Shown: positions 9,319 through 34,929 of the stretch, in pieces
Numbering within the stretch: the stretch's first letter is position 1
Layout of the letters: each line of letters opens with the position of its first letter
Origin: Acinetobacter phage ABPH49
Length of the DNA stretch: 64,000 nucleotides
Sequence record: MH533020.1
Reading direction: 5' to 3' (one strand)
Made by a program: the position numbers and the translations under genes
The notes under the pieces: model-generated
Seen by the model: only the letters and a program-made list of their open reading frames with translations
What the model was told of the DNA's origin: nothing
Databases searched by the model: none

Positions 9319-9417
9319 GGTGTGATTCCTTTTTGTGGGTGGAGGCGGTATTGCCTCCCGATGTGTTAATAGTAGGTCATCTGGCGCAGGATGTAAAGCG
9401 GATAAGTGAAATAAATG

Positions 9418-10784: not shown

Positions 10785-11093
10785 TCAGTAGGTATAAAAA
10801 CCCTTTTCGGCACAAAATCCGAGATAACCGCCGGTTGTTGTTTCCCGTGCTAACAGGCCGGTTAAATCAACAGCGCCTACCCAGCGGCCCCACGCTTCAA
10901 TATAGAAAACAACATAGTTTGCCGGGCGGGCCTCAGCGTCGCCGTTTTTGTCAAAGTAAACAGCGGCGGCTTTTGCAATCTTAGCTACGGCCTTATCTGC
11001 GGCGGCCTCCGTTGCATAGTTTTTGCAAGGGTTTTTGTTATCTTTACGATACTCTTCAATGCGGGCGGTGATAGTTGCAATGATGTTAGCCAT
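10785..11093 (-). CDS. hypothetical protein (102 aa)
   Basis: follows a -10 TATAAT and the conserved 5' hairpin; AAAGAG RBS. Confidence 0.65.
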   Translation of the reverse strand: MANIIATITARIEEYRKDNKNPCKNYATEAAADKAVAKIAKAAAVYFDKNGDAEARPANYVVFYIEAWGRWVGAVDLTGLLARETTTGGYLGFCAEKGFYTY

Positions 11094-11112: not shown

Positions 11113-11147
11113 GGCGGGAACCATTCCCGCTTGATGTAATGATTATA
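11113..11147 (-). promoter_or_regulatory. -10 TATAAT plus conserved 5' hairpin GCGGGAA-TGG-TTCCCGC (copy 1 of 5)
   Basis: minus-strand order is -10, ATCAAG, hairpin, RBS, ATG 11093; the -35 is weak. Confidence 0.5.
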
Positions 11148-11261
11148 GCTGATCACGCGGGTGATGTTTAGCAATTCGTGCTATTTTGGGATATTTCTTC
11201 CAGATGATAAAGCTTATCATTTGCATTCTCACCTAAAAGGCCCTGAGAGCGATTCTAAGCG

Positions 11262-11370
11262 TTTTGCCGTTTTGGCTACCCTCTAAAACCGCCTGTAATC
11301 CATTCTAAGCCGCTTTTGCCTGAAGCCTAGCGGTTATACCTCTTTGAAGAGATCTCACTAATGCGAGCTA
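11262..11370. repeat. ~110-bp intergenic repeat copy A (partner at 12606-12715)
   Basis: shared blocks TAAAAC(C/G)GCCTGTAA and AGAGATCTC(A/G)CTAAT; ends in a GAGAA/TTCTC-type palindrome. Confidence 0.45.
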
Positions 11371-11385
11371 TTCTCATCTAGAAAA

Positions 11386-11646
11386 TCAGGAATTATGTGA
11401 TAAAAGCTTGTCAACGCTTGCCAAGTATGATTTAAGCAGGCTGATGCTCTTCATGTGGTCAACGTGCCCGGCCTTGCCGTTCTGGCTGTTGGTCTTAGTT
11501 TTCCTATACCGTGCCAACAACAACAGGTAAAGATCTGTGTTATGGCGGTTAGCGAAAGGCGGCGTTTGCCGCTCTGGTAAAGCCAGTATGTGACAGGGGG
11601 CAAATCGGCGGGATTGGTCCAGATCGTTACGGCGGTTAGCGCCCAT
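11386..11646 (-). CDS. hypothetical protein (86 aa)
   Basis: preceded by a GGGGCC-GTAA-GGCCCC hairpin and a GAGGA RBS. Confidence 0.45.
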   Translation of the reverse strand: MGANRRNDLDQSRRFAPCHILALPERQTPPFANRHNTDLYLLLLARYRKTKTNSQNGKAGHVDHMKSISLLKSYLASVDKLLSHNS

Positions 11647-11686
11647 GAGAAGATCCTCAAAGATGGGGCCTTACGGCCCCTGTTGG

Positions 11687-11920
11687 TTAACGTAAAGCCT
11701 TGACGGTTTCGCCATAGGAATAATCAATAGGCGATCCGGGGTGATCAGCGGTAATCACATCGACGCCGGTTTGCTTCAGCACGATCCCGGCGACCGTTTC
11801 GTAAATAGGCTGGCGGACGTCGTCGCCGCTTTCGTTTGTGGCGTCATAGTAGCCGGTTAGGATTTCGTCGCCCGCTTGAAGGTTTTCAGCGTTGATCAGT
11901 TGGCGCGTTTTAGTAGTCAT
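11687..11920 (-). CDS. hypothetical protein (~77 aa; start MTTKTRQ)
   Basis: AGAGG RBS; GC hairpin 11938-11955 just upstream. Confidence 0.5.
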   Translation of the reverse strand: MTTKTRQLINAENLQAGDEILTGYYDATNESGDDVRQPIYETVAGIVLKQTGVDVITADHPGSPIDYSYGETVKALR

Positions 11921-11963
11921 ACGTAAAGCCTCTATAGTGGGGCCTTGTGCGGCCCCTGTTAGG

Positions 11964-12446
11964 TTAGAAGTTGTGGTAACCGTCGATGCTATTAGGGTTG
12001 ACAAAGGGGAAATGATGATTCAGCGTGTTGCGGCCCCATTGTGCCATATTCATGGAGGCCAGATCCCGGCGCTCAACTGCTGCGGCGTATGCCTCGGCCT
12101 GTTCTGCGGCGTCATTCTCAACAAAGGCGCGGATCTTCTCGCATACGTTATCCGGTAGCCTTGCCAACTCATGATAGGCGAACATGTAGCCATTGAAAGC
12201 GGTGATAACCCGGCCTTGGAACTCAGCAAAGCGTGAATGGTGGTAATTGTAAGACGTTGGATCAATGAAATGCTCTACCGGTGAAACGCGGATATCATCT
12301 GGCTTGCAGAATTGCCAAACAGCCTTGCCAAGGTCTAAGCACAATTCGCCGTCAGCTGCAATATTGATGACGGTTGCATTGATGAGGCCTTTGCTGATGG
12401 AATCGAAAATAACTTTCTGGCCTACGCAATAGATTGACTTTTTCAT
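11964..12446 (-). CDS. hypothetical protein (~160 aa; start MKKSIYCVGQ)
   Basis: AAAGAGG RBS before internal ATG. Confidence 0.55.
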   Translation of the reverse strand: MKKSIYCVGQKVIFDSISKGLINATVINIAADGELCLDLGKAVWQFCKPDDIRVSPVEHFIDPTSYNYHHSRFAEFQGRVITAFNGYMFAYHELARLPDNVCEKIRAFVENDAAEQAEAYAAAVERRDLASMNMAQWGRNTLNHHFPFVNPNSIDGYHNF

Positions 12447-12605
12447 GGTGTTGCCTCTTTGTTGGCGTTGTTTCGTTCTGATGAGGTAATTATAGATCAA
12501 CGGGTGGGAGATGCAAGCGGATTTTTCAACTTTTTGCATCTTTTTCGTTGTTGAGAACGCTTATAGTTTACATTCTCATCTTGCGGGGTGTTTTGTCCAA
12601 ACTGG

Positions 12606-12715
12606 TGTTTTAGCTGTTGTCAAGCCGTCTTAAAACGGCCTGTAAGGGCCTATAAGGCGTTTTATCCGTTAGCCTTGCCGTTGTATGGCTTCGCAGAGAT
12701 CTCGCTAATAGGAAT
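12606..12715. repeat. ~110-bp intergenic repeat copy B
   Basis: see copy A; flanked by GAGAACGC...TTCTC at 12553-12578. Confidence 0.45.
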
Positions 12716-12740
12716 AATTCTCAATTGGAAAAGCCCGGAT

Positions 12741-13085
12741 TTACCGGACCTTTATTGGCAACACGCAACCCCATTCCGGGCGCTGCTTTTCTGCTACGCT
12801 TTCCAACTCTTCAGCCTCATAGCCTGACGTTCTCAGATCAAACAAGGCCGCGTCTATTTCTTCTATCTTCTTTACAAGCTCGTTTTTGCGGGCCTGTAAG
12901 GCATCGTCTAACGCTTCTATTGCCTGTTTGACCGTCTCCCCTTTTGCCTCTAGATAACCCCGATCCCTGCCGGGCAAGCTCCCGGCGCTGGTGCTGGCCG
13001 TCCAGCGTCCACGCTTAGACCAGAAAACCCGGAAGCCTTTAACCTCAAAGATGAAATTTTTCATTACGTGGCAAAAGCGGATCAT
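12741..13085 (-). CDS. putative DNA-binding protein (possible AP2-like domain), start uncertain
   Basis: segment FRVFWSKRGRWTASTSAG resembles the AP2 DNA-binding core (RG.R.R.WGKW.A.I); weak RBS. Confidence 0.4.
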   Translation of the reverse strand: MIRFCHVMKNFIFEVKGFRVFWSKRGRWTASTSAGSLPGRDRGYLEAKGETVKQAIEALDDALQARKNELVKKIEEIDAALFDLRTSGYEAEELESVAEKQRPEWGCVLPIKVR

Positions 13086-13297
13086 ATCTCTTTCCTCGCT
13101 TGTAAGTAAAGCACCGCCGTTAAGTAGGACTCATCGGCCCACTCTTTAACCGCATCCATAAAGGATGGGTATTTGTAGCTCTTAGCCTCGGGTGTTCCGT
13201 GCCAAGGGTAGATAGTCTGATAAACCTCTTTTAATACCTCTTCCCGGCGCTGTTGTGTCATGGATTCAGGATCATAACGCAAAGGTAAATTGTTCAT
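13082..13297 (-). CDS. hypothetical protein (71 aa)
   Basis: GGAG RBS; overlapping stop/start. Confidence 0.6.
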   Translation of the reverse strand: MNNLPLRYDPESMTQQRREEVLKEVYQTIYPWHGTPEAKSYKYPSFMDAVKEWADESYLTAVLYLQARKEI

Positions 13298-13740
13298 TTC
13301 TTGGCAAGCTCCCGATAAAGGCGATCATGGTAGGCCGGGCCGCGTTCGTTAACGTCGATATAAGCCTGCGTTGCGATCCGGCTCTGGTCTGGGTCACAAA
13401 TCAGAGTAGTAATGCCGCCAGCAACTACAGACACGCGGCCAAGATAATAAACATAAGCGCCGCACTCTGTGAAAATGGTGCAATTCTGGCGCAGGTATGG
13501 TAACAGGTATTTATCCCCCATTGCACGGGCCTTGTAAATAGCCTGTGAGCCGTTGATCAGGCGCTTGATGTGATGCGGGTCGTTGATCGCCTTGTTTGGG
13601 CTTCCCATGTACTGATAACGGGCCTCGGCGATGTTTTTGGCCTTGGCTTCAAGCTCTGGGATCATAACGTTGATCCGGGCCTGTTCCTGCGCCGCTGGCG
13701 TCAACTCATCAAAGTAAAACAGTTTTGAAAGATTCATCAT
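13294..13740 (-). CDS. hypothetical protein (~148 aa; start MMNLSKLF)
   Basis: AAGGGG RBS. Confidence 0.55.
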   Translation of the reverse strand: MMNLSKLFYFDELTPAAQEQARINVMIPELEAKAKNIAEARYQYMGSPNKAINDPHHIKRLINGSQAIYKARAMGDKYLLPYLRQNCTIFTECGAYVYYLGRVSVVAGGITTLICDPDQSRIATQAYIDVNERGPAYHDRLYRELAKK

Positions 13741-13836
13741 AAGCCCCTTGGCTTGTTGGTTACCTTTGACCGGTGAAGCCTCGCAAGGCCCCACCTCAAA
13801 GATATTATGGGACCAGTTCGGCCCCTTGTCAACACT

Positions 13837-14226
13837 TTAAATATAAACTTTCCCGTCGTCGCCGACGTATGGATCACAGCTCCCGGCTTTTTTGCTCATC
13901 GCTGTAAGAACGTCGCCAGTGTTGCCAAGGCCGCGATCCCAGAATCCTACGCCGTGCCCGTTGCGAGTTAACCAAAAGTCATGCCCGGACAATTCGAAAG
14001 AGTGGAGGCCGTCGGCGTCTAGACGTTCCATAATGGTATAAGCATCTTTCCAAAACGCATGGCACTCTAATTTCACCTGCTCCACAGTCTCGGCGGCCAG
14101 CTCAAAGGCTTGGAGATCCTCCACCTCTTCACCAGTGGCGGGATCCGTGCCCGGCGTGCTCCACAGCATGGCGGTGATATAGGCCTTTACAAAAGCGTTG
14201 AATTGTGGGTTATCTGAGTATTGCAT
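13837..14226 (-). CDS. hypothetical protein (~129 aa; start MQYSDNPQF)
   Basis: ATG with AAGAG RBS; the track start is a TTG. Confidence 0.5.
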   Translation of the reverse strand: MQYSDNPQFNAFVKAYITAMLWSTPGTDPATGEEVEDLQAFELAAETVEQVKLECHAFWKDAYTIMERLDADGLHSFELSGHDFWLTRNGHGVGFWDRGLGNTGDVLTAMSKKAGSCDPYVGDDGKVYI

Positions 14227-14279
14227 AATGGTATCTCTTTTCAAAGGGGCCGGGGTATCCGGCCCTTGTGGTTAGTATT

Positions 14280-14495
14280 TTACGCCAATTCGGTGATGGT
14301 TGCAACAGCGCCAAGCATTACATATTCCGAACCTTCAGCGGTGAAGTGACGATCGCCGATATAGCTTACAAAATCAGACTCGCCGACGTTACGCATAAAA
14401 CACTTATTGTCAGAATCACGAACAAAGAATTGAACCTTCTCTTTCTTGTTGGTGTAGAACTTGCCAGCGCTGCGAGTGGTTTTGGTCTGGTACAT
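14280..14495 (-). CDS. hypothetical protein (71 aa)
   Basis: RBS AAGAGGAAA; upstream TTGCGT-N16-TATAAT embedded in an inverted repeat at 14503-14543. Confidence 0.6.
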   Translation of the reverse strand: MYQTKTTRSAGKFYTNKKEKVQFFVRDSDNKCFMRNVGESDFVSYIGDRHFTAEGSEYVMLGAVATITELA

Positions 14496-14568
14496 TTGGG
14501 ATTTCCTCTTGTTGTCCCGTTTCGATATAAAAGATTATACATCACCCACGGGACAACGCAAGCACATT

Positions 14569-14721
14569 TTAGAGATAAGTGATCGAAAACTCCCAACTGA
14601 TTGAAAACGTTTTGTAAACCAGCCAGCAAATCAGACCTACAAGTGCCAGATCACACAGGACAGACAAGCCAAGGGCGGCTAGGTATTTACGGCGCAGGCG
14701 CTTTGTGGTTGAATTTTCCAT
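14569..14721 (-). CDS. small membrane protein (~50 aa; MENSTTKRL...)
   Basis: RBS AAGGGGGAA before internal ATG; TM segment. Confidence 0.45.
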   Translation of the reverse strand: MENSTTKRLRRKYLAALGLSVLCDLALVGLICWLVYKTFSISWEFSITYL

Positions 14722-14731
14722 GTGTTCCCCC

Positions 14732-15016
14732 TTAGAACCAGTTGGCTGAGTCGTTGAATTTTTGATCGCCGTAGCGGCCGGTAAAGTACAGGCGAACCAG
14801 TGTTGAGAATCGCTCACAGGTCACTGATACAATCAAAAGCGACAAGGTAGCATCCATTTGATCCCACTCCTCAAGCTTCAGTCCGCCAGCCTGCGCCGCC
14901 TGTTGTATGCGCTTCAATTCATCATGGCACGCCGCCCGGGTCCAGCCTGTAAGGCTACCAGTCCCGATCACTTGCTGCAATACGGCATTGTTTACGGGTA
15001 AAGGTTGGTTTGTCAT
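14732..15016 (-). CDS. hypothetical protein (94 aa)
   Basis: RBS AAGAGGA. Confidence 0.6.
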   Translation of the reverse strand: MTNQPLPVNNAVLQQVIGTGSLTGWTRAACHDELKRIQQAAQAGGLKLEEWDQMDATLSLLIVSVTCERFSTLVRLYFTGRYGDQKFNDSANWF

Positions 15017-15028
15017 GGTGCTATCCTC

Positions 15029-15160
15029 TTAGAAGTTGGCCGCGTGGCCGGTTTGGTAAATAGAATCAAGTGCCTTAAAGATCCCGATCATTCTGTCGGC
15101 GTCAAGTCGGTTTACTGATAACTCAACCAGCTTGTAAATCAGTTCGTGGATGATTGACAT
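15029..15160 (-). CDS. hypothetical small protein (43 aa; MSIIHELIYK...)
   Basis: not in track; AGGAGCC RBS; preceded by hairpin GCGGGCC-GTGGT-GGCCCGC. Confidence 0.35.
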   Translation of the reverse strand: MSIIHELIYKLVELSVNRLDADRMIGIFKALDSIYQTGHAANF

Positions 15161-15205
15161 CTTTAAGGCTCCTGTGCGGGCCGTGGTGGCCCGCTGTAGT
15201 TTGGG

Positions 15206-15625
15206 TTAGCGCTGATAGCCGATCAGCTCAAAACGGGCACCGGCAGCGCGGTAATTGCAACATTCACAGGCTGCGGGGGTGAAGTCCGTCTCTTTCTCAC
15301 CATTGCCCAAAAATTTATAAAGGCGATCCAGTCGCAAAACAGACTTTTCGATCTTGGCTTCCCACTCCGCCGGGATTTCTTCGCGGTGTTCACCATTGGC
15401 CCAGAACAGGCGGCAATCTTCGCACACCATGAGACTGATCGGATCTTTTGATGGCTCCAATTCGAAACCGTTGTTTAAGATCACGTGCTTCACGGCTTCC
15501 ACCATAGACGGGCTTTCGTTGTATTTGCCGGATACCGGGTCGATCTCGATCATTCCGATAAATGAACCTTCACGCTCTACAGCCATGCGGTTTGATGTGA
15601 CGCGGGTCAAAGTGCAGTTATACAT
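15206..15625 (-). CDS. Cys-rich hypothetical protein (139 aa)
   Basis: AAAGGA RBS; CEDC ... CECC motifs. Confidence 0.6.
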   Translation of the reverse strand: MYNCTLTRVTSNRMAVEREGSFIGMIEIDPVSGKYNESPSMVEAVKHVILNNGFELEPSKDPISLMVCEDCRLFWANGEHREEIPAEWEAKIEKSVLRLDRLYKFLGNGEKETDFTPAACECCNYRAAGARFELIGYQR

Positions 15626-15705
15626 GGTAAAATCCTTTGTTTCTGTTGGTTGATAACTCTTTATATGCGGCTATCTTAGCAATGATCATAACCGCATGTA
15701 AAGGA

Positions 15706-15852
15706 TTATTTTTCGGTAATGTGTAAAATTTTTGGCGCTTTGTTCACTGGTGCGGGCTTCTCGCCGTACTGGTGGATAAAGAAAGCAAAAACACAGGCTA
15801 ACATGATATGCTTTTTCCAGTCAATACGCACCGTATGCTTTTTTGTGCTCAT
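15706..15852 (-). CDS. hypothetical small protein (~48 aa)
   Basis: not in track; GGGGGCG RBS; ATGA overlap. Confidence 0.35.
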   Translation of the reverse strand: MSTKKHTVRIDWKKHIMLACVFAFFIHQYGEKPAPVNKAPKILHITEK

Positions 15853-16064
15853 AGGTAACGCCCCCACACCTTAGGGATCATGGCATCGATCACCATCGCC
15901 AGACCCGCCAGCGGCCCGGCAACAAACAGGGCAACCGCTCCGCATACCGCCACCGAATCGGCGGACCCGGTTGTCATAATCCCGATCCCGGCGGCAATGT
16001 ACGCCACAGGGACCGCAACTAACATTAAGAATATTGCAGCGGATACTGTGATTAAGCAATTCAT
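15849..16064 (-). CDS. membrane protein (~71 aa; start MNCLITVSAA)
   Basis: AGAGA RBS before internal ATG; two hydrophobic helices. Confidence 0.5.
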   Translation of the reverse strand: MNCLITVSAAIFLMLVAVPVAYIAAGIGIMTTGSADSVAVCGAVALFVAGPLAGLAMVIDAMIPKVWGRYL

Positions 16065-16372
16065 TTTTCTAATCTCTGGGGCGGTGTCCGCCCCGTTGGG
16101 TGTCAACTTACCGGCACCGCGTGCCAACTATTGACTATGGTTTTATCTTTACCGCGTGCCTCTTCAAGGTCGCGATAGTGTTTCAAGGCCCGATCCTTGT
16201 CAGTGTATACGCCTTTCACCTCGGCGGCAAGCGGGGCCGCCGTGGCTTGCGTGACAATGTAAATCACGTTAGTGATCCGCCGGGATCGTATCGTTAGCGA
16301 TGGCGGCGATAACGCCTTGCACCATATGATCCGGCAGGTAATCGCTCTCCGCCTCGGCGATGCGCTGGCCGT

Positions 16373-16576
16373 TCACCTCGCATCATAGCCGATCTTGAAC
16401 CCTTCAGCGGTACGGTAAACCATAACCACCAGCGGGCAAGTTTTGGATTCGTCCTTGTGGTGTTTAAAGGTGATCATGGTGACGTGCCCGGAGATCTTCA
16501 CCTCTGCATCGATGTGACGTTCTACAGCGGACAGGAAGAAAAATTGATTTGCTTGGCTCATGCGTTGGATAGTCAT
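16373..16576 (-). CDS. hypothetical protein (67 aa)
   Basis: downstream of promoter TTGACA-N18-TATACT and the conserved 5' hairpin; RBS AGAGGAAA. Confidence 0.65.
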   Translation of the reverse strand: MTIQRMSQANQFFFLSAVERHIDAEVKISGHVTMITFKHHKDESKTCPLVVMVYRTAEGFKIGYDAR

Positions 16577-16592
16577 TTTAGTTTCCTCTGTT

Positions 16593-16652
16593 GGCGGGAA
16601 CCATTCCCGCCGCTTGATAAGAAGTATAGGCGATTGTTCGCGGTGCTGTCAA
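16593..16652 (-). promoter_or_regulatory. sigma70 promoter TTGACA-N18-TATACT plus conserved 5' hairpin (copy 2)
   Basis: -35 at 16647-52, -10 at 16623-28, hairpin GGCGGGAA-CCA-TTCCCGCC at 16593-16611. Confidence 0.65.
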
Positions 16653-17186
16653 CTAAATAAACAGGACTTTATCAATTAATTTTTCCACCAGATCCGCGCG
16701 GTGTGCTGCGTTGCCGTTCGTCTGGCTCAGGGATACGGCGCAGGCGGCGCGGTATGCGGCGATCATGGGTTTAAGCTGCACGCGGTTAACCGTGGCTCGG
16801 GCGGCGGTGTCTGCGTTGTCACTCTGGCCTTTCATGAAGGTTATAGCGTTCTCTTCGCCGACCTTATATTTTGTAATGATCCGGCGATCTTTGAGGTAGG
16901 AAACGATCTCTTTCTGGAAGGAATAGAACCCCTCGAGGCTTCCACGTTCCAACATTTCCCCAGCAACAGACCAGACACAAGCGGCGGCGTAGGTCCCGGT
17001 TTGGCATGAGTCGGCCAGAACGTTTACCGCGTGGCGGAATTCACCGGCGGCGATCAGCTGGCGGATCTCATAAGCGCGGAATTTATAAAAGGTATGCATG
17101 GCGCTTCCAACGGGCGCTGTTCGGCGCTCGGCGATCGCCTGATCAACGATGTCAAATTTCGGCTGCAATTCGTTTAAAGTGTACAT
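16653..17186 (-). CDS. hypothetical protein (177 aa)
   Basis: GAGGA RBS. Confidence 0.65.
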   Translation of the reverse strand: MYTLNELQPKFDIVDQAIAERRTAPVGSAMHTFYKFRAYEIRQLIAAGEFRHAVNVLADSCQTGTYAAACVWSVAGEMLERGSLEGFYSFQKEIVSYLKDRRIITKYKVGEENAITFMKGQSDNADTAARATVNRVQLKPMIAAYRAACAVSLSQTNGNAAHRADLVEKLIDKVLFI

Positions 17187-17273
17187 GGTAGATCCTCAAC
17201 TGTTTTTGTGGGTTAACTTCTTTAACTGATGCCGCCATTGTATAGCGGCACCTTAAAGAATGCAACCTTTATT

Positions 17274-17432
17274 TTACCTCGCAAAGTATGCCGGGTTAAC
17301 CTTGATCCCGTGGCGGGTCAGTTCGTCAGACCGCACACGTTGACCAGCGGTAAAGCGGAAAACCCCCGCGCCTGTCCCGATCGTTACATCTACCAGACAA
17401 AACAGCAATTTACAGATTGAGCCTTTCATATT
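17274..17432 (-). CDS. hypothetical small protein (~52 aa; MKGSICKLL...)
   Basis: AAGAGG RBS before internal ATG. Confidence 0.4.
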   Translation of the reverse strand, partial: NMKGSICKLLFCLVDVTIGTGAGVFRFTAGQRVRSDELTRHGIKVNPAYFAR

Positions 17433-17505
17433 GTTACCTCTTAAAAAATGTATTGTAAAAGTGAACCTACACCATACCAGAACGCCGCACACAAAACAAG
17501 GATTG

Positions 17506-17652
17506 CGGCATAAACTTTTTGATTAAACGTGAAGCGTTGACCCATTGCCGTTCCCCCCGCTAGGTTTCTTGTTTAGCTGCTGAACCATCCACGCCGGGAC
17601 CTTCTGGCCCGCTGGCTTGTGGGTGAATTTCGTGGTTTTCTTGGTGATGCGG
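17506..17652 (-). CDS. hypothetical basic small protein (~48 aa), frame uncertain
   Basis: not in track; AAAGGGA RBS; an alternative overlapping frame exists. Confidence 0.25.
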
Positions 17653-17750
17653 ATAAATACAGATGGCATTTTGTAGTCCCTTTTGGTTTGCTTTCGTTTG
17701 CATATGCCGCCATTCTACACGACGGCATAAACCAACGTCAAGCTATTATT

Positions 17751-17936
17751 TTATGGCATTGGCTCAACTTCAGGGCCGGGGATACACTGCGCCAAAATGT
17801 AGCGGTGATCCTTGCGGCGCTCGGCTGCTACGATCTCACAGGTTACGCGGTCGTCGTAGGAGTCAATAACGTAATCTTCACAGTTCATATAACCGAAGTT
17901 TGACAAAAAGCACATAGTTGCGAATACTTCAAACAT
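17751..17936 (-). CDS. hypothetical protein (61 aa)
   Basis: GGGAGGG RBS. Confidence 0.55.
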   Translation of the reverse strand: MFEVFATMCFLSNFGYMNCEDYVIDSYDDRVTCEIVAAERRKDHRYILAQCIPGPEVEPMP

Positions 17937-18092
17937 TTACACACCCTCCCGAACATAAAATTTTGTGCCTGCTGGCAGGCGTTTGCCGTAGCCCTCTCGA
18001 TCTCTCAGTCGCTGGCGGGCTTCTTTCTCATTGTGGCCGTGAACCTTGAGGGGGTGAGCCACGCCGGGGATATTTACAAAATAGTGTTTCAT
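17937..18092 (-). CDS. hypothetical small protein (~51 aa; MKHYFVNIPG)
   Basis: internal ATG with AAAAGG RBS. Confidence 0.45.
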   Translation of the reverse strand: MKHYFVNIPGVAHPLKVHGHNEKEARQRLRDREGYGKRLPAGTKFYVREGV

Positions 18093-18094
18093 AG

Positions 18095-18202
18095 TTACCA
18101 GCCTTTTACAATTGCGATTGCTGCACATGATACCAGAGCAACCAGAGTGAAGAAAACAGCGCCGATCGCGCTAACAGGTACTTGTGTCAATTCATAAGTC
18201 AT
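18095..18202 (-). CDS. small membrane peptide (~35 aa)
   Basis: not in track; AAGGAAATG; downstream of promoter 18254-18282. Confidence 0.35.
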   Translation of the reverse strand: MTYELTQVPVSAIGAVFFTLVALVSCAAIAIVKGW

Positions 18203-18253
18203 TTTACATTTCCTTGTCGGTTTGGTCGGGGCCTTTCCCGTCCTGATGTAAGT

Positions 18254-18282
18254 AATATACACCTACTCGATCGGGGTGTCAA
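18254..18282 (-). promoter_or_regulatory. sigma70 promoter TTGACA-N17-TATATT
   Basis: consensus hexamers with ideal spacing on the minus strand. Confidence 0.6.
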
Positions 18283-18306
18283 CAAGGAAACAGAAAATAA
18301 TTTAGA

Positions 18307-18531
18307 TTATTTTCGTGTGACTCGGATCGCCGTAAAAATCTGCTTTCCCTCTTCACAGATCAGGATCTGCGAGGTACTAACCCGGATACCTTCACGCGAT
18401 GCCGTAGCTGTCAGCGAGCTAACCGCCTGCGCGTAGGTTTTTGGAGCCTCCACAAAATAAACCAGTGAATAGCCTAGCTGTTGCGCCTTCAGGTGGCGGA
18501 TAAAAGCGGTTAGACTAAGAATGTTTTCCAT
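18307..18531 (-). CDS. hypothetical protein (74 aa)
   Basis: ORF; AAAGGTAA RBS. Confidence 0.5.
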   Translation of the reverse strand: MENILSLTAFIRHLKAQQLGYSLVYFVEAPKTYAQAVSSLTATASREGIRVSTSQILICEEGKQIFTAIRVTRK

Positions 18532-18589
18532 CGTGTCGCATTACCTTTGTTTGTGGGTCAAAAGCGGCCCGTGTGGGCCGCTACGCTGT

Positions 18590-18730
18590 TTAATCCTTCA
18601 GGCCTTCCCAGTGCCACGCCTTGCCGCGTTGCGTCTTGTTGGCCTTGCTACGCTTAACCTTGTCGCGGTCGTGGTAGCCAAATTTTTCTTTGCTTGCCGC
18701 GTTGCGGGTTACTGCATTGTTGGTGATCAT
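18590..18730 (-). CDS. highly basic small protein (~46 aa)
   Basis: internal ATG with AGGATAA RBS. Confidence 0.4.
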   Translation of the reverse strand: MITNNAVTRNAASKEKFGYHDRDKVKRSKANKTQRGKAWHWEGLKD

Positions 18731-18740
18731 GCTTATTATC

Positions 18741-19046
18741 CTATTTGTTTGATTTAAGTTCAAGTGCATAACGGCGATCAATCTCATCCTGCACCAGTTC
18801 CAACGATTGGCGGGTGTAATGGTATAGCACCTCGCCGCCTAACTTCTCGAGCCGGGACAATACTGCATCGGCTACGAATTCATTTAACGCGCCGTTTTCC
18901 CGCGTGGTGTACACATCACCAAACAACTCATATTCAATATAATGAAACACTTTATGCTTTCTCCGCATAAGCTCCCGTTTGATGAGGGGCGGCGCATAGT
19001 ACGCCACCACCGCCACGGCCGCAAGGCCTGTTATCATATCAATCAT
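18741..19046 (-). CDS. hypothetical protein (101 aa), N-terminal TM
   Basis: ATGA overlap with upstream gene. Confidence 0.55.
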   Translation of the reverse strand: MIDMITGLAAVAVVAYYAPPLIKRELMRRKHKVFHYIEYELFGDVYTTRENGALNEFVADAVLSRLEKLGGEVLYHYTRQSLELVQDEIDRRYALELKSNK

Positions 19047-19461
19047 TCATCGCGTCATCCAGTAAACGGGCGATATCTTCCACGATGACGGCGCAGATCG
19101 TCCAGCTGATTACCTCCCAATCATCACCCTTTTGAGCATAGAGCGCCTTGCCGATTTCGTCAAGGTTGAAGTCCGCCAAGCCTCGGCACTCTTTGAGCAT
19201 TTCCAGAGATGATCCGTTGCCACAGTTTGCGGCCAGATTGGACAAATGATCTTGCACCTGATCCGCATACTTTTTGAGGAAAGCGCCGCACTCAGTATAG
19301 TAAATGAAACTTGTACCGCCTGCCGCGCCGTGGTTGGCGATGTCTGAAGCTTTCTCCTTGAAGTCTGCCCAGCTGCCGTGCACATTGGCAACCGCGCGGA
19401 TCAGTTTTGCATTCAGAGCGTTGTCAGTAACAAAAGATTTCAGAGTGATATTCTTAGCCAT
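19039..19461 (-). CDS. hypothetical protein (140 aa)
   Basis: AAGGTAAA RBS; promoter 19535-19562 upstream. Confidence 0.6.
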   Translation of the reverse strand: MAKNITLKSFVTDNALNAKLIRAVANVHGSWADFKEKASDIANHGAAGGTSFIYYTECGAFLKKYADQVQDHLSNLAANCGNGSSLEMLKECRGLADFNLDEIGKALYAQKGDDWEVISWTICAVIVEDIARLLDDAMND

Positions 19462-19534
19462 GATATTTACCTTATATAAAATGCCTGTCGGCGGTTGTTT
19501 GGGTTAGGGTGTTTCCCTTCCCCTGATGCCACCT

Positions 19535-19562
19535 ATTATAGGGCGGCACCGGGAAGAGTCAA
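19535..19562 (-). promoter_or_regulatory. sigma70 promoter TTGACT-N16-TATAAT
   Basis: minus-strand consensus. Confidence 0.6.
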
Positions 19563-19571
19563 CAACTATTT

Positions 19572-19937
19572 TTAATTTTCTTCGTCTTCCTCTTCGTTTT
19601 CCAACTCTTCGATCTTCTCTTCCAGATCGCTGATCTCGTTTTCTAATTCCTCTTCCTCTTCCATTAAGCCCTTATAATCCTCCTCGTCCTCTTTATCAAG
19701 GCTGTCGGTCCAGTCATTCAGGCCGCCACGGAAAGCGGTCGGGTCCAGCTGTTGGAGCGCGTAGCCCGTGTTGTAGGTTCCACCGGCGATCTCAACCGTC
19801 CCGTAGACCTCATCAAGATACTCCATGTAATCCTCATCGCTGCGGCTGATTTCGTAGGATTCCATTTCAGCCTGTTTTTCCTTCAGGTTATTGCGGGCGA
19901 TGATCAGTTGAGCGTTCAAAGTTTCGATGTTAGCCAT
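19572..19937 (-). CDS. acidic coiled-coil protein (121 aa, E/D-rich)
   Basis: downstream of promoter plus conserved hairpin; strong composition bias. Confidence 0.6.
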   Translation of the reverse strand: MANIETLNAQLIIARNNLKEKQAEMESYEISRSDEDYMEYLDEVYGTVEIAGGTYNTGYALQQLDPTAFRGGLNDWTDSLDKEDEEDYKGLMEEEEELENEISDLEEKIEELENEEEDEEN

Positions 19938-19958
19938 TATATTTATCTCTCATATTGT

Positions 19959-20019
19959 GGCGGGAACCATTCTCGCCTTGATGTGTCGTATCTTACTACT
20001 ACCTGTTTTGCGTGTCAAA
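19959..20019 (-). promoter_or_regulatory. promoter TTGACA-N18-TAAGAT plus conserved 5' hairpin (copy 3, one mismatch)
   Basis: hairpin GGCGGGAA-CCA-TTCTCGCC at 19959-19977. Confidence 0.5.
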
Positions 20020-20026
20020 CTTATTT

Positions 20027-20221
20027 TTAAATCTTTTTGCCTTGCCAATCAAACTTGAAAATCACTTTTAAATCAGGGCCTAGCAGGTTTCCGGCGGCAC
20101 TCAGTGCGGCGATCCGCTGGCTGGCTTCTTTCTCTATGTCGTTAAGAGTCTTTACCTCGCCTTTGTGGTTTACCGGCTGTATATACAAAACCGGCCCCGT
20201 TGATAAGCTTATGCTGTACAT
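20027..20221 (-). CDS. hypothetical protein (~64 aa; MYSISLSTG)
   Basis: AAGGAGG RBS before internal ATG. Confidence 0.55.
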   Translation of the reverse strand: MYSISLSTGPVLYIQPVNHKGEVKTLNDIEKEASQRIAALSAAGNLLGPDLKVIFKFDWQGKKI

Positions 20222-20541
20222 TGTGAAACCTCCTTGAACCGTGCGGCCTCGTCTGGGTGTGCGTAGCGACCGAGGCCTATCACATACTCCCAATTTTCGG
20301 CAGTCATTACAAAAGTTTGGTGACGGCGGTCAAGTATGCCGCTTAATGCCGCCTGATCATTATAGACCGTTGGGCTTTTTGCGTCGATAACATAGCGGTT
20401 TAAGCTTGCCGCCTCGCCAGCCGTCAACACGTGGCCGGTATAACATGTATAACCCTCACAAAGCGGGTTTTTAGCCAAGTGATCGACCCGGCCTTGTAAA
20501 GACTCCAAAGAAGGGAGATCAGGATTCTGATTGTATTTCAT
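20209..20541 (-). CDS. hypothetical protein (110 aa)
   Basis: GAGG RBS. Confidence 0.6.
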   Translation of the reverse strand: MKYNQNPDLPSLESLQGRVDHLAKNPLCEGYTCYTGHVLTAGEAASLNRYVIDAKSPTVYNDQAALSGILDRRHQTFVMTAENWEYVIGLGRYAHPDEAARFKEVSQCTA

Positions 20542-20606
20542 AGTTTAACCTCGTGTCAACAAAACTTTTATGAGTGGGACCAGACAAGATCCCACTGGTA
20601 AAAGCC

Positions 20607-20786
20607 TTAGTGACGGTTTAAGCTCAAAGTGCCGCCGGTATGGGTTAGGCCCACCGTCCAGCCGTCGCGGCCCTTAACCGGTTGTTTGGTTTTGCCGCCT
20701 ACCTTGCGGAGGATAGCCGCTTCTTTGCGGGCCTGTTCGCGGGTGGTGTGAGTTGCGCCGATAGTAACGATAGTAACGTTTTTCAT
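20607..20786 (-). CDS. hypothetical basic protein (59 aa; MKNVTIVTIGATH...)
   Basis: not in track (the plus-strand shadow ORF 20682-20879 is listed instead); RBS AAAGGAAAGG; follows promoter plus hairpin. Confidence 0.5.
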   Translation of the reverse strand: MKNVTIVTIGATHTTREQARKEAAILRKVGGKTKQPVKGRDGWTVGLTHTGGTLSLNRH

Positions 20787-20806
20787 AATGCCTTTCCTTT
20801 TGGTCT

Positions 20807-20866
20807 GGCGGGAACCATTCCCGCCTTGATATTGAGTATATTAGATTATCTTGTTTTGCCTGTCAA
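20807..20866 (-). promoter_or_regulatory. sigma70 promoter TTGACA-N17-TAATAT plus conserved 5' hairpin (copy 4)
   Basis: -35 at 20861-66, -10 at 20838-43, hairpin 20807-20825. Confidence 0.6.
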
Positions 20867-21216
20867 CCGATCATTTTAGTTTTTACTGAAATTTTCGGGT
20901 GTGGAAGGATCGACCCGTCCAGCAATTCCCCGCCTGCGTGGCGCTGGCGGAAGCGATCCACAAAGTTCAACAATTCGGTATAGCTCGAGATCCTGCCGCG
21001 TGCTGATCTGTTTAGCCCTGCGTACTTAGGATCCCCATGAGACGATGATACGGTCGCCACGCGGCCCGGGGTGATAGGTTGGAAGTATACCGCACGCGCG
21101 GCGCGGATTGACTCAATACCCGGGGCGGCTTTCTTGGCTACGGTTTCGCCATGCTTTACAAACAAGATCTTGTTAAGTTCTGGGGCGTAGGCGTGGATCT
21201 CGATAACCATTTTCAT
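20863..21216 (-). CDS. hypothetical protein (117 aa)
   Basis: downstream of promoter plus hairpin; AGGTAA RBS. Confidence 0.6.
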   Translation of the reverse strand: MKMVIEIHAYAPELNKILFVKHGETVAKKAAPGIESIRAARAVYFQPITPGRVATVSSSHGDPKYAGLNRSARGRISSYTELLNFVDRFRQRHAGGELLDGSILPHPKISVKTKMIG

Positions 21217-21238
21217 CTGTCATTACCTTTTTGATTTT

Positions 21239-21297
21239 GGCGGGAACCATTCCCGCCGCTTGATAACTAATTTACGCCCTTATCTTGTTGGCGTCAA
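21239..21297 (-). promoter_or_regulatory. sigma70 promoter TTGACG-N17-TAAATT plus conserved 5' hairpin (copy 5)
   Basis: -35 at 21292-97, -10 at 21269-74, hairpin 21239-21257. Confidence 0.6.
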
Positions 21298-22074: not shown

Positions 22075-22380
22075 TCATCTTAATTGTGAATCTTTAGACC
22101 CGCGCCGGTTGTACGTTGACGCGATCGCCCGATCGTGGTCCTGTTGGCACGTGATGCAATACCGGCAACCCGGCACGGCCGCCCGGCGGCGCTCTGGTAT
22201 AGGCTCCCCGCAATCGTCACAGTGAGTTAATGATTCACCCCGGCGGATCTGGGACCGTGCAAAATCGATCGCGTTGTCTATTGTTGCTTGGATCATGTTT
22301 AGATGATCGTCAGCACCTGCAAAACCACTAGCCATAAAATAGAGTCCCTTGTAAAGTTTCGGACAGTCTACGCCAGCCAC
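22075..22380 (-). CDS. TraR/DksA-family C4 zinc-finger protein
   Basis: CDDCGEPIPERRRAAVPGCRYCITCQ matches the TraR/DksA C4 zinc-finger signature; start uncertain (22380 or ~22335). Confidence 0.6.
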   Translation of the reverse strand: MAGVDCPKLYKGLYFMASGFAGADDHLNMIQATIDNAIDFARSQIRRGESLTHCDDCGEPIPERRRAAVPGCRYCITCQQDHDRAIASTYNRRGSKDSQLR

Positions 22381-22697: not shown

Positions 22698-22726
22698 ACC
22701 CAGCGCAAGCTGGGTTATTCTGTTGT
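22698..22726 (+). terminator. rho-independent terminator ACCCAGC-GCAA-GCTGGGT plus T-rich tail
   Basis: 7-bp stem, GCAA loop, TATTCTGTTGT tail. Confidence 0.5.
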
Positions 22727-23027
22727 CAGCAGGAAACGCCACCCCACGGCGAAAAGGCGGGGCTAACGCAGCCGGGCACGGCGCGGAAGGTTAATCGCCG
22801 GTAGCTCGTCCAAAATTTCTTTTGTAAAGATTGAGAAAAAGCTTGATCGTGGGTGTGAGTGTGCTATTCTTATCACATGGCACCGGATGACGGGGAAGAC
22901 AAACACCACCCCTGCCTGTCATTCTGCAAACGAGAATGATTATCATTCAACATCCTAAATGAGAACCATTCTCATCCCGACCGGGAGAGATCTAGACCGA
23001 AAAACTGATTTACAAAAACAGGATACC

Positions 23028-23240
23028 CTAGAAAAATTTTTCGCCCTCCCCTCTTCTGATATAATACGATCGGAAATTTAAAAAATCGATCGAGATCCTA
23101 AAAATTTTTCGCCCTGCCCTTCTGTAGATTACGAAACCGAAAATGAAAAACCGATCGAGTACCAGAAAATTTTTTCGCCCTCCCCTGCCCGGGGTATTTC
23201 GATCTCGATTTTGAAAAACCGATCGAGAACTCAAGTTTTT
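23028..23240. repeat. three-plus tandem direct repeats of ~67 bp
   Basis: each unit carries TTTTTCGCCCT(C/G)CCC and AAAAACCGATCGAG; the units start near 23028, 23097 and 23162, in a 1.1 kb non-coding region. Confidence 0.6.
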
Positions 23241-23471
23241 TTTAATCCCACGAGGTTGGTAGGAGCGGGCCGATGGAGACCCTTCCGGTGGGTCAAGGTG
23301 TTGGGATACGTGGCGAAGTTATCCACACTTGGAGGTAAGTGGGTGGTAAGCTGTAGGTGGATGGAGGCCCTGAGTGGGTGATTACCGGCAACCGAGTGGC
23401 CGCCGGGATCTCAATTTGAATCTCGATTTGGATTTGATTTTGATTCAGGTTTTATAATATCCTGAAAAATA

Positions 23472-30116: not shown

Positions 30117-30407
30117 TCATGTCCGATTCATCATAGAAGAATCCTTGGTGGCACCCATTTCCCCGGCAAACATGGGCTTTAGCTTTTTTCGTTGCCGGAT
30201 GATCCAGAATCCACTGTGACCACCTTTCCCAACCTCCTCGAGGTAACCTTTGGAGATCAGGCCTTCCGCCACCTTTCCGATTTTAACAGGTAACAGGCAG
30301 TCCCCGTCCCAATACTGGGTTTTTCGACGAGGACTGGCCTCTATCTCCCAGCCAAATACAACAGCAGCTTGGAGGAAACTTGCCTCGCGTTTGTTAATCT
30401 TGCTCAT
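30117..30407 (-). CDS. hypothetical protein (~96 aa; start MSKINKREAS), possibly DNA-binding
   Basis: GGGGG RBS; TGATG overlap with upstream HD gene. Confidence 0.5.
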   Translation of the reverse strand: MSKINKREASFLQAAVVFGWEIEASPRRKTQYWDGDCLLPVKIGKVAEGLISKGYLEEVGKGGHSGFWIIRQRKKLKPMFAGEMGATKDSSMMNRT

Positions 30408-30886
30408 CACTGACCCCCGTGAAGGATTTCGTGCAGCTGGCGGGCAGAGTCCAGACGAACCCACATCGCGTGGTATTTACGCATACGCAGCAGATCCTTG
30501 TCGGTAATGCCCTTCAGGCGGCGAATGTCGGTATTGTGGCGCAGGTCGGCCAGCTTAACCAGTGTTGCATTCGGGCTTTGCATCAGGCCATTGAGGTATT
30601 CCTCAGGCGTCTGACCTTCCTTCTTGGTCATGCGGTCGACAATGTCCACGACGGACTTGTCAAATCCGGCCTCGAGGAGGTATTCCAAAGTGACGTTGGT
30701 ATCTTCCACCAGATCGTGCATTACCGCAGCCGCTTTCACCAACGGGTCCTGCGACTTGACGTAGTGCATCACTTTCAAGCAGTGCAGGATGTATGGTTGA
30801 CCACCCTTGTCAAACTGGCCGTGGTGATGGGTAGCTGCCAGATAGATTGCTTTAGCCAGTTGTTCTTCTTTGCTCATCAGTTCCAT
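30407..30886 (-). CDS. HD-domain (p)ppGpp hydrolase (Mesh1/SpoT-hydrolase-like small alarmone hydrolase)
   Basis: motifs HHHGQFDKGGQPYILHCLKV ... HDLVEDT match the HD hydrolase signature of RelA/SpoT/Mesh1; AGGAGAAG RBS. Confidence 0.75.
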   Translation of the reverse strand: MELMSKEEQLAKAIYLAATHHHGQFDKGGQPYILHCLKVMHYVKSQDPLVKAAAVMHDLVEDTNVTLEYLLEAGFDKSVVDIVDRMTKKEGQTPEEYLNGLMQSPNATLVKLADLRHNTDIRRLKGITDKDLLRMRKYHAMWVRLDSARQLHEILHGGQ

Positions 30887-33921: not shown

Positions 33922-34929
33922 ATGACTCTGCAAACTCAAATCTCTACTATCAAAGATGTAAACCGCGCTTATGGCTACACCGATTGTGGCTCTCTGGTCC
34001 GCAAACTGGGTAACAAGAAGCTGAATGCAGCTGACCGAAACATCGCGTATGACCTGAACTTTGACGACCTCCTGATGATGGGTTATAAACTCTCTGGCAA
34101 CGGCACCTGTGACTATACCGGCTTACCTTTCTTCGGTACCGATAACGAAGCCTTCGCCCCGACCATCGAGCGTATCGACGACTGCAAGGGCTATGTCCGT
34201 GGCAATATCGCCATTGTTGGTGCCCGGGCAAACTATCTCAAAGATAAGTTTATCGACAAGAACCATCAGGACCCTTCCGATCTGGAGCTGAGCAAAGACG
34301 ACATCAAGATCATCAACGCCATGCTGCCGCGTGTACACGCCAAGGGTTATCTGGAAGCCCTGAAGGGGAAATACATCCCTAACTTCGCAACCGAAGAAGA
34401 ACTGGTAAAAATGCTGGACGAGAAGTGGTTCTTACCATCACTCCACCGCATCAACGACCAGCTGGAAGAGATCGCCAAAGGATCTGCTCCAGAGGATGGT
34501 AACATTTCCCTTCAGGGCGTGGGTGCGAAACTGGAAGTTCCTGAGGTGGATACCTCAGAAGAGGTTGATGCAGCACCTCTGGAGATCGACACCTCAACCC
34601 CGGCAGAAGATGAAGCAGAGAAGCCTTCTTTGCCAGATGATGTGGAGATTGCCGCGAGTTACGCAAAACTCTGCCGGGCACTGGGTAAAGTGATGACTGT
34701 GAATATCACCTTCAGCCAGTACAAGAGTATCTACACCAACAAGCGTTGCCCGTTCACCGGTGAAGAGTTGACAGAGCGTTACCCTCTGATCCTCGACCGA
34801 TCGTTGCCTCTGGAGTCTGGCAACGTGAAGATGACCAGCAACCGAGTTGGGCAGGCAATGAACGAATTTATCGACGCCACAGGCCTGTCTGTTTTCGAAC
34901 TGGCTAAAAACCTGAAGAAGTTGGCGTAA
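33922..34929 (+). CDS. protein with two degenerate Endonuclease VII-like (beta-beta-alpha-Me) repeats
   Basis: internal duplication; KGYVRGNIAIVGARANYLKDKF and SGNVKMTSNRVGQAMNEF resemble T4 Endo VII GKVRGLLCNLCNAAEGQ.KHKF, but the Cys/His ligands are mostly absent. Confidence 0.65.
   Translation: MTLQTQISTIKDVNRAYGYTDCGSLVRKLGNKKLNAADRNIAYDLNFDDLLMMGYKLSGNGTCDYTGLPFFGTDNEAFAPTIERIDDCKGYVRGNIAIVGARANYLKDKFIDKNHQDPSDLELSKDDIKIINAMLPRVHAKGYLEALKGKYIPNFATEEELVKMLDEKWFLPSLHRINDQLEEIAKGSAPEDGNISLQGVGAKLEVPEVDTSEEVDAAPLEIDTSTPAEDEAEKPSLPDDVEIAASYAKLCRALGKVMTVNITFSQYKSIYTNKRCPFTGEELTERYPLILDRSLPLESGNVKMTSNRVGQAMNEFIDATGLSVFELAKNLKKLA

Follow-up and report, generated by a model that had tools for sequence, protein, structure and literature searches.

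Escherichia coli messenger RNAs (mRNAs) can be stabilised by stem-loops at the 5' terminus, those of the ompA leader and the T7 gene 10 leader being examples, and both RppH and the 5' sensor of RNase E require unpaired 5' nucleotides. Stem-loops also form part of the promoter-early stem-loop (PeSL) cassettes of T4-like phages (Arbiol et al. 2010, PMC2839356; Comeau et al. 2014, PMC4122927). Here we describe a GC-rich hairpin of 19 nucleotides (nt) that recurs at five sites on the minus strand of Acinetobacter phage ABPH49 (sequence record MH533020.1), within an analysed stretch of 64,000 nt referred to below as the window. The element follows promoters of the leftward early block, and we read it, with a probability of about one half, as part of a modular early promoter and leader cassette in which an RNA hairpin near the 5' end, relative to predicted start sites, would stabilise or insulate the early mRNAs.

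A preliminary description of this DNA, drawn up from the letters alone, had reported five near-identical copies in one orientation, and a mismatch-tolerant pattern search of the 64 kb bears this out: the 19-mer GGCGGGAAYCATTCCCGCC occupies five sites, all in the same orientation, with 0 matches in 100 dinucleotide shuffles. In the minus-strand sense, which is that of the coding strand, it reads GGCGGGAA-TGG-TTCCCGCC, or as RNA GGCGGGAA-UGG-UUCCCGCC, and displays an 8-bp stem and a UGG triloop. The copies are given here with their promoter elements and the downstream open reading frames (ORFs).

21239-21257, minus strand: hairpin copy 5, perfect; the cassette extends from the -35 TTGACG at 21297 to the ATG of ORF 20863-21216.
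20807-20825, minus strand: hairpin copy 4, perfect; -35 TTGACA at 20866, -10 TAATAT ending at 20838, ORF 20607-20786 downstream.
19959-19977, minus strand: hairpin copy 3, internal G to A change, -6.2 kcal/mol; -35 TTGACA at 20018, ORF 19572-19937; perfect in the related phages Kashira and ChuuTotoro.
16593-16611, minus strand: hairpin copy 2, perfect; -35 TTGACA at 16652, -10 TATACT ending at 16623, ORF 16373-16576.
11113-11131, minus strand: hairpin copy 1, outer G to A change, 7-bp stem, -10.8 kcal/mol; -35 TAAACA at 11170, -10 TATAAT ending at 11142, ORF 10785-11093.

Three of the five copies are perfect and the other two carry a single mismatch each. At copy 11113 an A replaces the first G (minus sense), turning the outer pair into A.C, while at copy 19959 the change G5 to A (minus sense) places an A.C inside the stem, lowers the stability of the hairpin on its own from -13.1 to -6.2 kcal/mol and alters the minimum-energy fold of that leader. 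The hairpin had been called perfectly conserved, which is overstated for an element with two mutated copies, one of them destabilised. The TCAAG that precedes the stem and the A that follows it are invariant in all five, and the leader of copy 21239 folds with a minimum free energy of -14.8 (z -2.4).

All five copies lie where the initial transcribed region of sigma70-type early promoters is predicted, in a single orientation and ahead of a ribosome-binding site (RBS) and an ATG, as had been proposed. A consensus scan places a promoter-like site upstream of every copy, confirming the -35 TTGACA or TTGACG described for four of them and giving TAAACA for copy 11113; the region contains more promoter-like sites than expected (35 vs 13.4 +/- 3.7 in shuffles). 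The distance from the end of the -10 to the first base of the stem is 10-12 nt, and 16-22 nt separate the end of the stem from the start codon. The element had been placed 6-11 nt after the -10, and its promoter-proximal position stands; the shorter spacing arose because the coordinates used took in the ATCAAG(CG) leader, and for the stem itself the figure is 10-12 nt. A-rich tracts lie upstream of the -35 at the window copies, and the same architecture of promoter and AT-rich upstream region is found in relatives. The neighbourhood is a gene-dense, variable block of small ORFs. The proteins encoded downstream of the five copies measure 59-121 aa, have no known function and are mutually unrelated, no paralogy being detected among them; thus the repeat is not a by-product of gene duplication.

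The window belongs to a phage of the Vequintavirinae, the rV5-like myoviruses of ~145 kb; its identity is 97.6% with Serratia phage vB_SmaM-Kashira and ~82% with vB_SmaM-ChuuTotoro, two members of that subfamily. Across the whole Kashira genome (144.5 kb) the 19-mer is found at five places only, which are the orthologs of the window copies, all perfect, and the genome-wide scan locates no 19-mer in coding or late regions. In that genome the element is therefore confined to the early block, and the equal occurrence in coding regions that had been set beforehand as an argument against it is not what is observed. Since all five copies are perfect in Kashira, the two variants in the window are recent mutations. 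When the four orthologous canonical copies of Kashira and ChuuTotoro are compared, 0 of 76 hairpin positions have changed, against 30 of 340 in the promoter and leader flank (Fisher p = 0.0027); judged by this contrast, the hairpin is evidently under purifying selection. The fifth ortholog, that of copy 11113 ahead of the gene starting MANII, has diverged at many positions in ChuuTotoro and still forms a hairpin, CGGGG-AAGG-CCCCG. These orthology-based comparisons are less biased evidence than the hairpin-fitted alignments described below.

Turnover of the cassettes is visible among the same relatives. The gene starting MKKSIYC is preceded by a canonical-type hairpin in ChuuTotoro and by none in the window or in Kashira. 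Window positions 13725-13850 and the corresponding segment of Kashira (L004:5845-5970) form a mosaic junction, the two sequences being near-identical through the -35 and the -10 of promoter 13832 and fully divergent past that -10, where each phage carries a different leader hairpin and a different gene. This junction is, by its alignment, a case of one cassette replacing another at an early promoter, and hairpins are gained, lost or swapped among close relatives.

Beyond these genomes, a blastn search with a 41-nt copy returned unannotated intergenic sites in ~115 phage records, mainly from phages of Klebsiella, Escherichia, Salmonella, Cronobacter, Erwinia and Serratia. Early regions were compared in KP13-16 and KP13-26 (Stephanstirmvirinae), UPEC06 (rV5-like), PVP-SE1 and GAP31 (Seunavirus), Hena1 (Henunavirus) and ChuuTotoro, leaving out the match in Salmonella phage 41, a poorly annotated and unverified record. 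GC-rich hairpins follow early promoters at the same distance in all seven. The canonical 19-mer itself is present in GAP31 (14006), in KP13-16 and at several sites of Klebsiella phage KP13-26, where UGG, UGA or UUG loops sit on the same stem. Other relatives display altered stems, such as GGCCGGGAA/UUCCCGGUC, GCCGGGG/CCCCGGC, AGCGGGG-AAUGG-CCCCGCU and AGCGGGAA-CAC-UUCCCGCU, and those of UPEC06 are quite different (GGCGGC/GCCGCC, GGGGGA/UCCCCC, GGGGCG/CGCCCC), at least five stems without resemblance to one another standing behind equivalent promoters. The orthologous hairpins of PVP-SE1 and GAP31 vary almost exclusively in the loop and in the pair that closes it. Structure of -9 kcal/mol or lower follows 48% of 67 early promoters predicted by regular expression in six phages, as compared with 10% of shuffles and 12% of random genomic windows (Mann-Whitney p = 3e-7).

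Pairing is retained while the stem sequence varies. In a gapless alignment of 26 distinct variants 95% of cells are paired, against 82% in shuffles, and in the alignment refitted with a covariance model 96% are, percentages that are inflated because the sets were selected or fitted as hairpins. Compensatory variation is observed in the former alignment, with changes on both sides in four of the eight pairs and a covariation score reached by 0 of 500 shuffles; sliding the 3' partner by 1-3 columns lowers pairing to 32-60%, and RNAalifold independently gives the same helix. The covariance model built from the 26 variants finds, at E < 1e-3 in nine Vequintavirinae and Stephanstirmvirinae genomes, 47 matches at 44 distinct loci, all on the early-gene strand except for two weaker reverse readings of loci already found. 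The 11 matches outside the seed are all followed by an RBS and an ATG, and nine of them have a -35/-10 pair upstream. The spacing is equally regular: the end of the -10 precedes the stem by 9-13 nt (median 11) at the 34 of 44 loci with a scoring promoter-like site, and the start codon follows the stem by 15-28 nt (median 21) at all 44. All 36 distinct family members examined keep a GGG/CCC core unchanged. Elsewhere in the Kashira genome the model yields marginal matches only (E 0.026 and 0.97). Judged by these alignments, the motif is one part of a broader early promoter-leader arrangement in this phage group, whose stems vary in sequence and remain paired.

Outside the group the picture is less distinct. 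The 15-mer core occurs in 103 IMG/VR stretches, about the chance number estimated by the author, and ~10-20 of these have a promoter-hairpin-RBS context, several being relatives of GAP31 or Hena1; a test of loop orientation gives 10 vs 3 (p = 0.09). The motif is thus not clearly widespread beyond this phage group. At three IMG/VR loci on unrelated contigs (L071, L017 and L086) the 15-nt core CGGGAATGGTTCCCG is embedded in longer perfect hairpins of up to 14 bp with unrelated outer stems, and a T-run follows the hairpin at L086; these may be chance matches or ordinary terminators.

The hairpin is not limited to the five promoters, as had been assumed, for different hairpins stand at the same position behind other early promoters of the window.

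18224-18243, minus strand: degenerate relative GG(A)CGGG-aaaggc-CCCG(A)CC, after promoter 18282 and leader ACATCA.
13772-13795, minus strand: different leader hairpin GGUGGGGCC-UUGCGA-GGCUUCACC, after promoter 13832; two G.U pairs in the sense strand.
14245-14267, minus strand: different leader hairpin GGGCCGG-atacc-CCGGCCC, -15.8 kcal/mol, after the promoter-like site 14305.
9341-9358, minus strand: different leader hairpin GGAGGC-aatacc-GCCTCC, after promoter 9397 and leader ACATCG.
19501-19523, minus strand: different leader hairpin GGG-gaa-GGG-aaaca-CCC-taa-CCC, after promoter 19562 and leader CATCA.

The hairpin at 13772 folds with -15.1 kcal/mol in the sense strand vs -9.9 in the antisense strand. 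One further 8-bp GC hairpin, GCGGGCCG-TGG-TGGCCCGC (plus strand, 15176-15194), lies between the minus-strand ORFs 15206-15625 and 15029-15160; it resembles the promoter hairpins in stem length and loop size but stands after a stop codon and is flagged as terminator-like on the antisense strand.

The location within the transcribed leader points to mRNA as the acting molecule, and the stabilising cassette would be assembled from four parts. These are a host sigma70-type promoter whose upstream region is A-rich; a short leader, (A)CATCAA or ATCAAG, most likely holding the predicted start site; a GC-rich hairpin of 7-9 bp beginning at about +3 to +7; and a spacer of ~10 A/G-rich nt leading to the Shine-Dalgarno sequence and the ATG, the latter ~20 nt past the hairpin. 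The hairpin would then lie a few nt from the 5' end of the early mRNA with a ribosome-covered RBS directly after it, an arrangement that would leave almost no single-stranded 5' RNA. 5'-end-dependent decay would be hindered both at pyrophosphate removal by RppH and at 5'-monophosphate sensing by RNase E, and the RBS would be kept from pairing with variable upstream sequence. Among the functions offered in the preliminary description, protection of the 5' end fits this anatomy best.

A possible source of pressure on early mRNAs is encoded in the window itself. The 335-aa protein at 33922-34929 (plus strand) carries an N-terminal region with matches to two PHROG families, 'Srd anti-sigma factor' and 'decoy of host sigma70' (phrog_1400, E 2.6e-9; phrog_4592, E 9e-13); rV5 gp11 has been named a probable Srd homolog (PMC3606486), and T4 Srd raises RNase E activity on host mRNA (PMC4980113). 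Were RNase E stimulated in this way, protection of the phage early mRNAs would be advantageous. The best overall PHROG match of the same protein is annotated as an HNH endonuclease, and the protein is relevant to how host RNA polymerase or RNase E is taken over.

Several observations weigh against a stabilising RNA hairpin. Were transcription to begin 7-8 nt past the -10, the predicted unpaired 5' tail would measure 2-6 nt, the upper end of which may exceed what full protection allows; a search of the literature for transcription start site data on Vequintavirus found none. The uniformity of the copies in the Serratia and Klebsiella phages, loop included, the invariant GGG/CCC core and the invariant TCAAG leader are unexplained by pure structure and would suit a sequence-specific binder, or homogenisation by recombination as suggested for PeSLs. 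The destabilised copy in the window, together with the MKKSIYC ortholog that lacks the hairpin in the window and in Kashira, indicates that the element is dispensable gene by gene. The pair counts derive from alignments chosen or fitted as hairpins. Finally, tests of the acting strand show no clear preference: the ratio of G.U to A.C is 9:16 in a catalogue that is unbiased but crude, transition mismatches being counted symmetrically (10:3, p = 0.09, in the model-fitted alignment), and the sense and antisense folding energies of promoter-proximal segments are alike (25 vs 18, p = 0.52).

Because the copies are kept identical in this phage, a sequence-specific RNA operator has to be weighed, in which a phage protein or a conserved enterobacterial protein binds CGGG(A/G)(A/G)-loop-(U/C)(U/C)CCCG on early mRNAs and co-regulates them, by translation shut-off at the early-to-middle switch or by selective protection. 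Stem and loop are uniform in Kashira (five copies), in ChuuTotoro (four) and, bar the two single mismatches, in the window, over flanks that differ by ~9%; the same 19-mer is shared by Klebsiella, Cronobacter and other phages of two subfamilies, and the invariance of the core, of TCAAG and of the 3' A would equally suit a recognised sequence. The variation found in relatives argues the other way, since the PVP-SE1 and GAP31 orthologs differ mainly in the loop and its closing pair, KP13-26 places TGG, TGA and TTG on one stem, and UPEC06 makes do with its unrelated stems. A Pfam scan of the 59 early-block ORFs detects only a TraR/DksA zinc finger, a DUF2201 metallopeptidase/VWA and DUF7222, with no RNA-binding or DNA-binding candidate. 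A host regulon was considered and rejected: 45 stretches of bacterial genomes contain the 19-mer, mostly in GC-rich non-enterobacteria and within genes or ordinary terminators, and the sole enterobacterial match, in Kluyvera, falls inside a coding region, so that enterobacterial host genomes give no sign of such a regulon. On balance we regard an RNA operator as possible but doubtful. A little less likely still is that the hairpin serves as a regulon tag on the early mRNAs of rV5-like and phi92-like phages, read by a dedicated phage or enterobacterial factor. If it did, tagged mRNAs might be spared the RNase E-driven destruction that the Srd-like protein may set off in the host, or might be silenced jointly at the early-to-middle switch, and the element would be a sequence-specific code for 5'-end immunity or shut-off rather than a generic stabiliser.

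The remaining explanations act on DNA or on the nascent transcript. As double-stranded DNA, the 19-bp palindrome at ~+5 to +23 could form a cruciform or be the operator of a dimeric DNA-binding protein, in either case hindering promoter escape and shutting down early transcription: its inverted repeat is perfect and occupies the classical position for a repressor, just downstream of the start, the G.U/A.C and sense/antisense energy tests show no clear RNA-sense preference, and the TraR/DksA-type zinc-finger protein of the early block indicates that transcription-level control by the phage exists. TraR-type proteins, however, bind RNA polymerase rather than DNA, the early block holds no helix-turn-helix or other DNA-binding Pfam domain, and the non-palindromic TGG centre is oriented alike relative to the promoter in the 16 canonical copies from the window and three Serratia genomes (window five, Kashira five, ChuuTotoro four) and in most relatives. 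The half-sites also vary, within UPEC06 and across the family, with complementarity kept through double changes; stems that vary among the promoters of one phage and remain complementary argue against a half-site-reading DNA-binding dimer and for a folded single strand, and a DNA operator is judged quite improbable. Recombination, as proposed for PeSLs (PMC2839356, PMC4122927), would make the promoter-hairpin segments homology patches through which small early genes are swapped, inserted or deleted along with their expression signals, and would leave gene conversion to keep the copies identical. The divergence of window and Kashira past the -10 of promoter 13832, the presence or absence of the hairpin ahead of the MKKSIYC gene and the five unrelated small ORFs in a gene-dense variable block would all follow from it. 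Yet a patch of 19-30 identical nt is short for homologous recombination, the 13832 junction falls in the promoter, outside the hairpin, and the fixed distances to -10 and ATG, as well as hairpins in all the divergent cassettes, are left unexplained. Recombination is unlikely as the main reason for conservation, and it is compatible with a stabilising role rather than opposed to it.

A signal for pausing, attenuation or anti-termination, either nut/put-like or acting through premature 5'-untranslated region (5'-UTR) termination that yields short RNAs, is the least credible of these proposals. The hairpin would form in nascent RNA just past promoter escape, long early operons that span several genes and contain hairpins could gain from processive anti-termination, and products of premature 5'-UTR termination are common in other virulent phages (PMC10914365). 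On the sense strand, however, no U-tract follows the stem, no boxA-like partner accompanies it, no N-like or Q-like domain is present among the 59 early-block ORFs, and with a promoter for each cassette the need for read-through is not obvious. An 8-bp stem with a 3-nt loop lacks the defining features of boxB or put. Rfam likewise gives 0 matches at the gathering threshold over the whole window, and an E-value search of 10.5-24 kb returns chance-level matches only (E up to 5). The anti-termination or attenuation function suggested earlier is accordingly without support in the sequence, U-tract and boxA/boxB-like features being absent. Intrinsic termination was rejected as well on the sequence signature: the sense tails are A-rich (AAAAUCAAAAAGG, AGACCAAAAGG and similar), with no U-tract and no sense-strand hit at any copy; the terminator scan flags copy 20807 alone (1/5), on the antisense strand, and terminator-like sites are not enriched (18 vs 16.2 in shuffles). 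The hairpin is also unlikely to be a target of RNase III, an 8-bp stem being below the substrate length of that enzyme.

The resemblance noted earlier between the hairpin and the palindrome GAGAACCATTCTC (22961-22973) is real at 11 of 13 bases, but the palindrome is not promoter-proximal and belongs to another conserved block, so the link is probably coincidental. GAGAACCATTCTC lies in a non-coding region upstream of the early block, 12 nt from a perfect 15-bp palindrome, GAATGATTATCATTC (22934-22948), which is also present in Kashira (L004:15093), KP13-16 (L010:18651), GAP31 (L114:11724) and the IMG/VR contig L057. The core of GAATGATTATCATTC, AATGAT(A/T)ATCATT, equals the core of the E. coli Fur-box consensus (15/19 overall), and the GAATGATTATCATTC/GAGAACCATTCTC region may be an iron/Fur-responsive or other dimer-binding site in a phage control region. 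The surrounding ~0.8 kb (22700-23470) are non-coding, flank the leftward early block, adjoin a small rightward ORF and contain AT-rich tracts; three tandem iteron-like repeats of ~66 bp, AGAAAAATTTTTCGCCCTCCCCT ... AAAAACCGATCGAG, occupy 23030-23242, and the whole looks like a replication origin or control region. A 'non-coding' box is mentioned in the rV5 paper too (PMC3606486).

Near the promoter-distal edge of the leftward early block, adjoining this non-coding region, 22075-22335 (minus strand) encodes a protein of 86 aa that carries a C4 zinc finger of DksA/TraR type (Pfam PF01258, E 9.5e-14; CDDCGEPIPERRRAAVPGCRYCITC), likely a secondary-channel factor of RNA polymerase. An HD-domain protein (Pfam HD_4, E 2.8e-9) is encoded at 30407-30886 (minus strand) and is annotated 'GTP pyrophosphokinase' in Kashira; together, the HD-domain and TraR-like proteins suggest that the phage may manipulate (p)ppGpp signalling. 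Upstream of copy 11113 an intergenic stretch of ~290 nt (11140-11385, minus sense) aligns closely with Kashira and ChuuTotoro, at a mean column identity of 91% in a three-way alignment that includes the hairpin and the gene start. With its two direct repeats of ~50 nt, CAAAAGCGGCTTAGAATGG...CAGGCGGTTTTAG and CAAAACGCTTAGAATCGC...CAGGGCCTTTTAG, the stretch may represent either a small RNA or a terminator-like unit in tandem.

Phages of the rV5-like and phi92-like types are often considered for therapy and biocontrol, and their early gene expression is almost uncharted. A portable unit of promoter, 5' hairpin and RBS that spans two subfamilies offers a testable handle on how early mRNAs survive the dismantling of the host transcriptome, a signature by which genuine early transcription units and gene starts can be annotated among tiny unknown genes, and a set of insulated cassettes, supplied by nature, for expression in enterobacteria. 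It also takes the concept of mobile PeSL-type cassettes beyond T4-like phages, with a different geometry.

Among the systems with which the element can be compared, the virion RNA polymerase promoters of phage N4 share a hairpin in the DNA (stem 5-7 bp, loop 3 nt) and an association with early transcription. In contrast, the N4 hairpin itself constitutes the promoter, is situated upstream of the start and requires the virion RNA polymerase, while here a normal -35/-10 precedes the hairpin; an RNA polymerase gene is reported to be absent from this phage group (PMC7344957). The lambdoid nut and HK022 put sites are similarly small cis-acting RNA structures downstream of phage early promoters. The nut boxB differs, however, in its 5-bp stem and purine-rich, GNRA-like pentaloop, in its dependence on boxA and N and in its position far from the start, as opposed to an 8-bp stem with a UGG loop, and put is a double stem-loop of ~70 nt that is absent here. 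The genome papers on rV5 and on the Certrevirus CB7 report sigma70-like promoters and not the hairpin (PMC3606486, PMC7344957); no description of the element was found in Rfam or the searchable literature, and a search for its literal sequence turned up no relevant paper. Only with a dedicated reader protein would the element amount to a new principle.

The 5' stabilisers of the ompA leader and the T7 gene 10 leader (GGGAGACCACAACGGUUUCCC) correspond in having a GC-rich hairpin near the 5' end, here a predicted one, a short leader and a strong RBS, and in a function expected from pairing rather than from sequence, which matches the many stem variants found here, as comparative evidence from hairpin-selected sets. 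They differ in being single, experimentally proven cases, where the present element is a multi-copy family across a phage lineage, known from its sequence, strikingly uniform in some of the phages and with a predicted 5' tail of 2-6 nt. The PeSL cassettes share the repeated unit of a strong sigma70-like early promoter, an AT-rich upstream region, a GC-rich stem-loop, a Shine-Dalgarno sequence and a start codon, the concentration in variable regions rich in small ORFan genes, and the association with insertion, deletion and replacement differences between close relatives. In contrast, the PeSL stem-loop is mostly situated between -35 and -10 or over the -10 and has been described as a terminator or attenuator of upstream transcription, whereas the present hairpin lies downstream of the -10 (by 9-13 nt at all 34 scored loci), and thus inside the transcript of its own cassette, with no U-tract and at a fixed distance from the start codon; the phages carrying it are Vequintavirinae and Stephanstirmvirinae, those with PeSLs Tevenvirinae. 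PeSL cassettes are the closest described concept, while in function the element would most resemble the 5' stabiliser hairpins.

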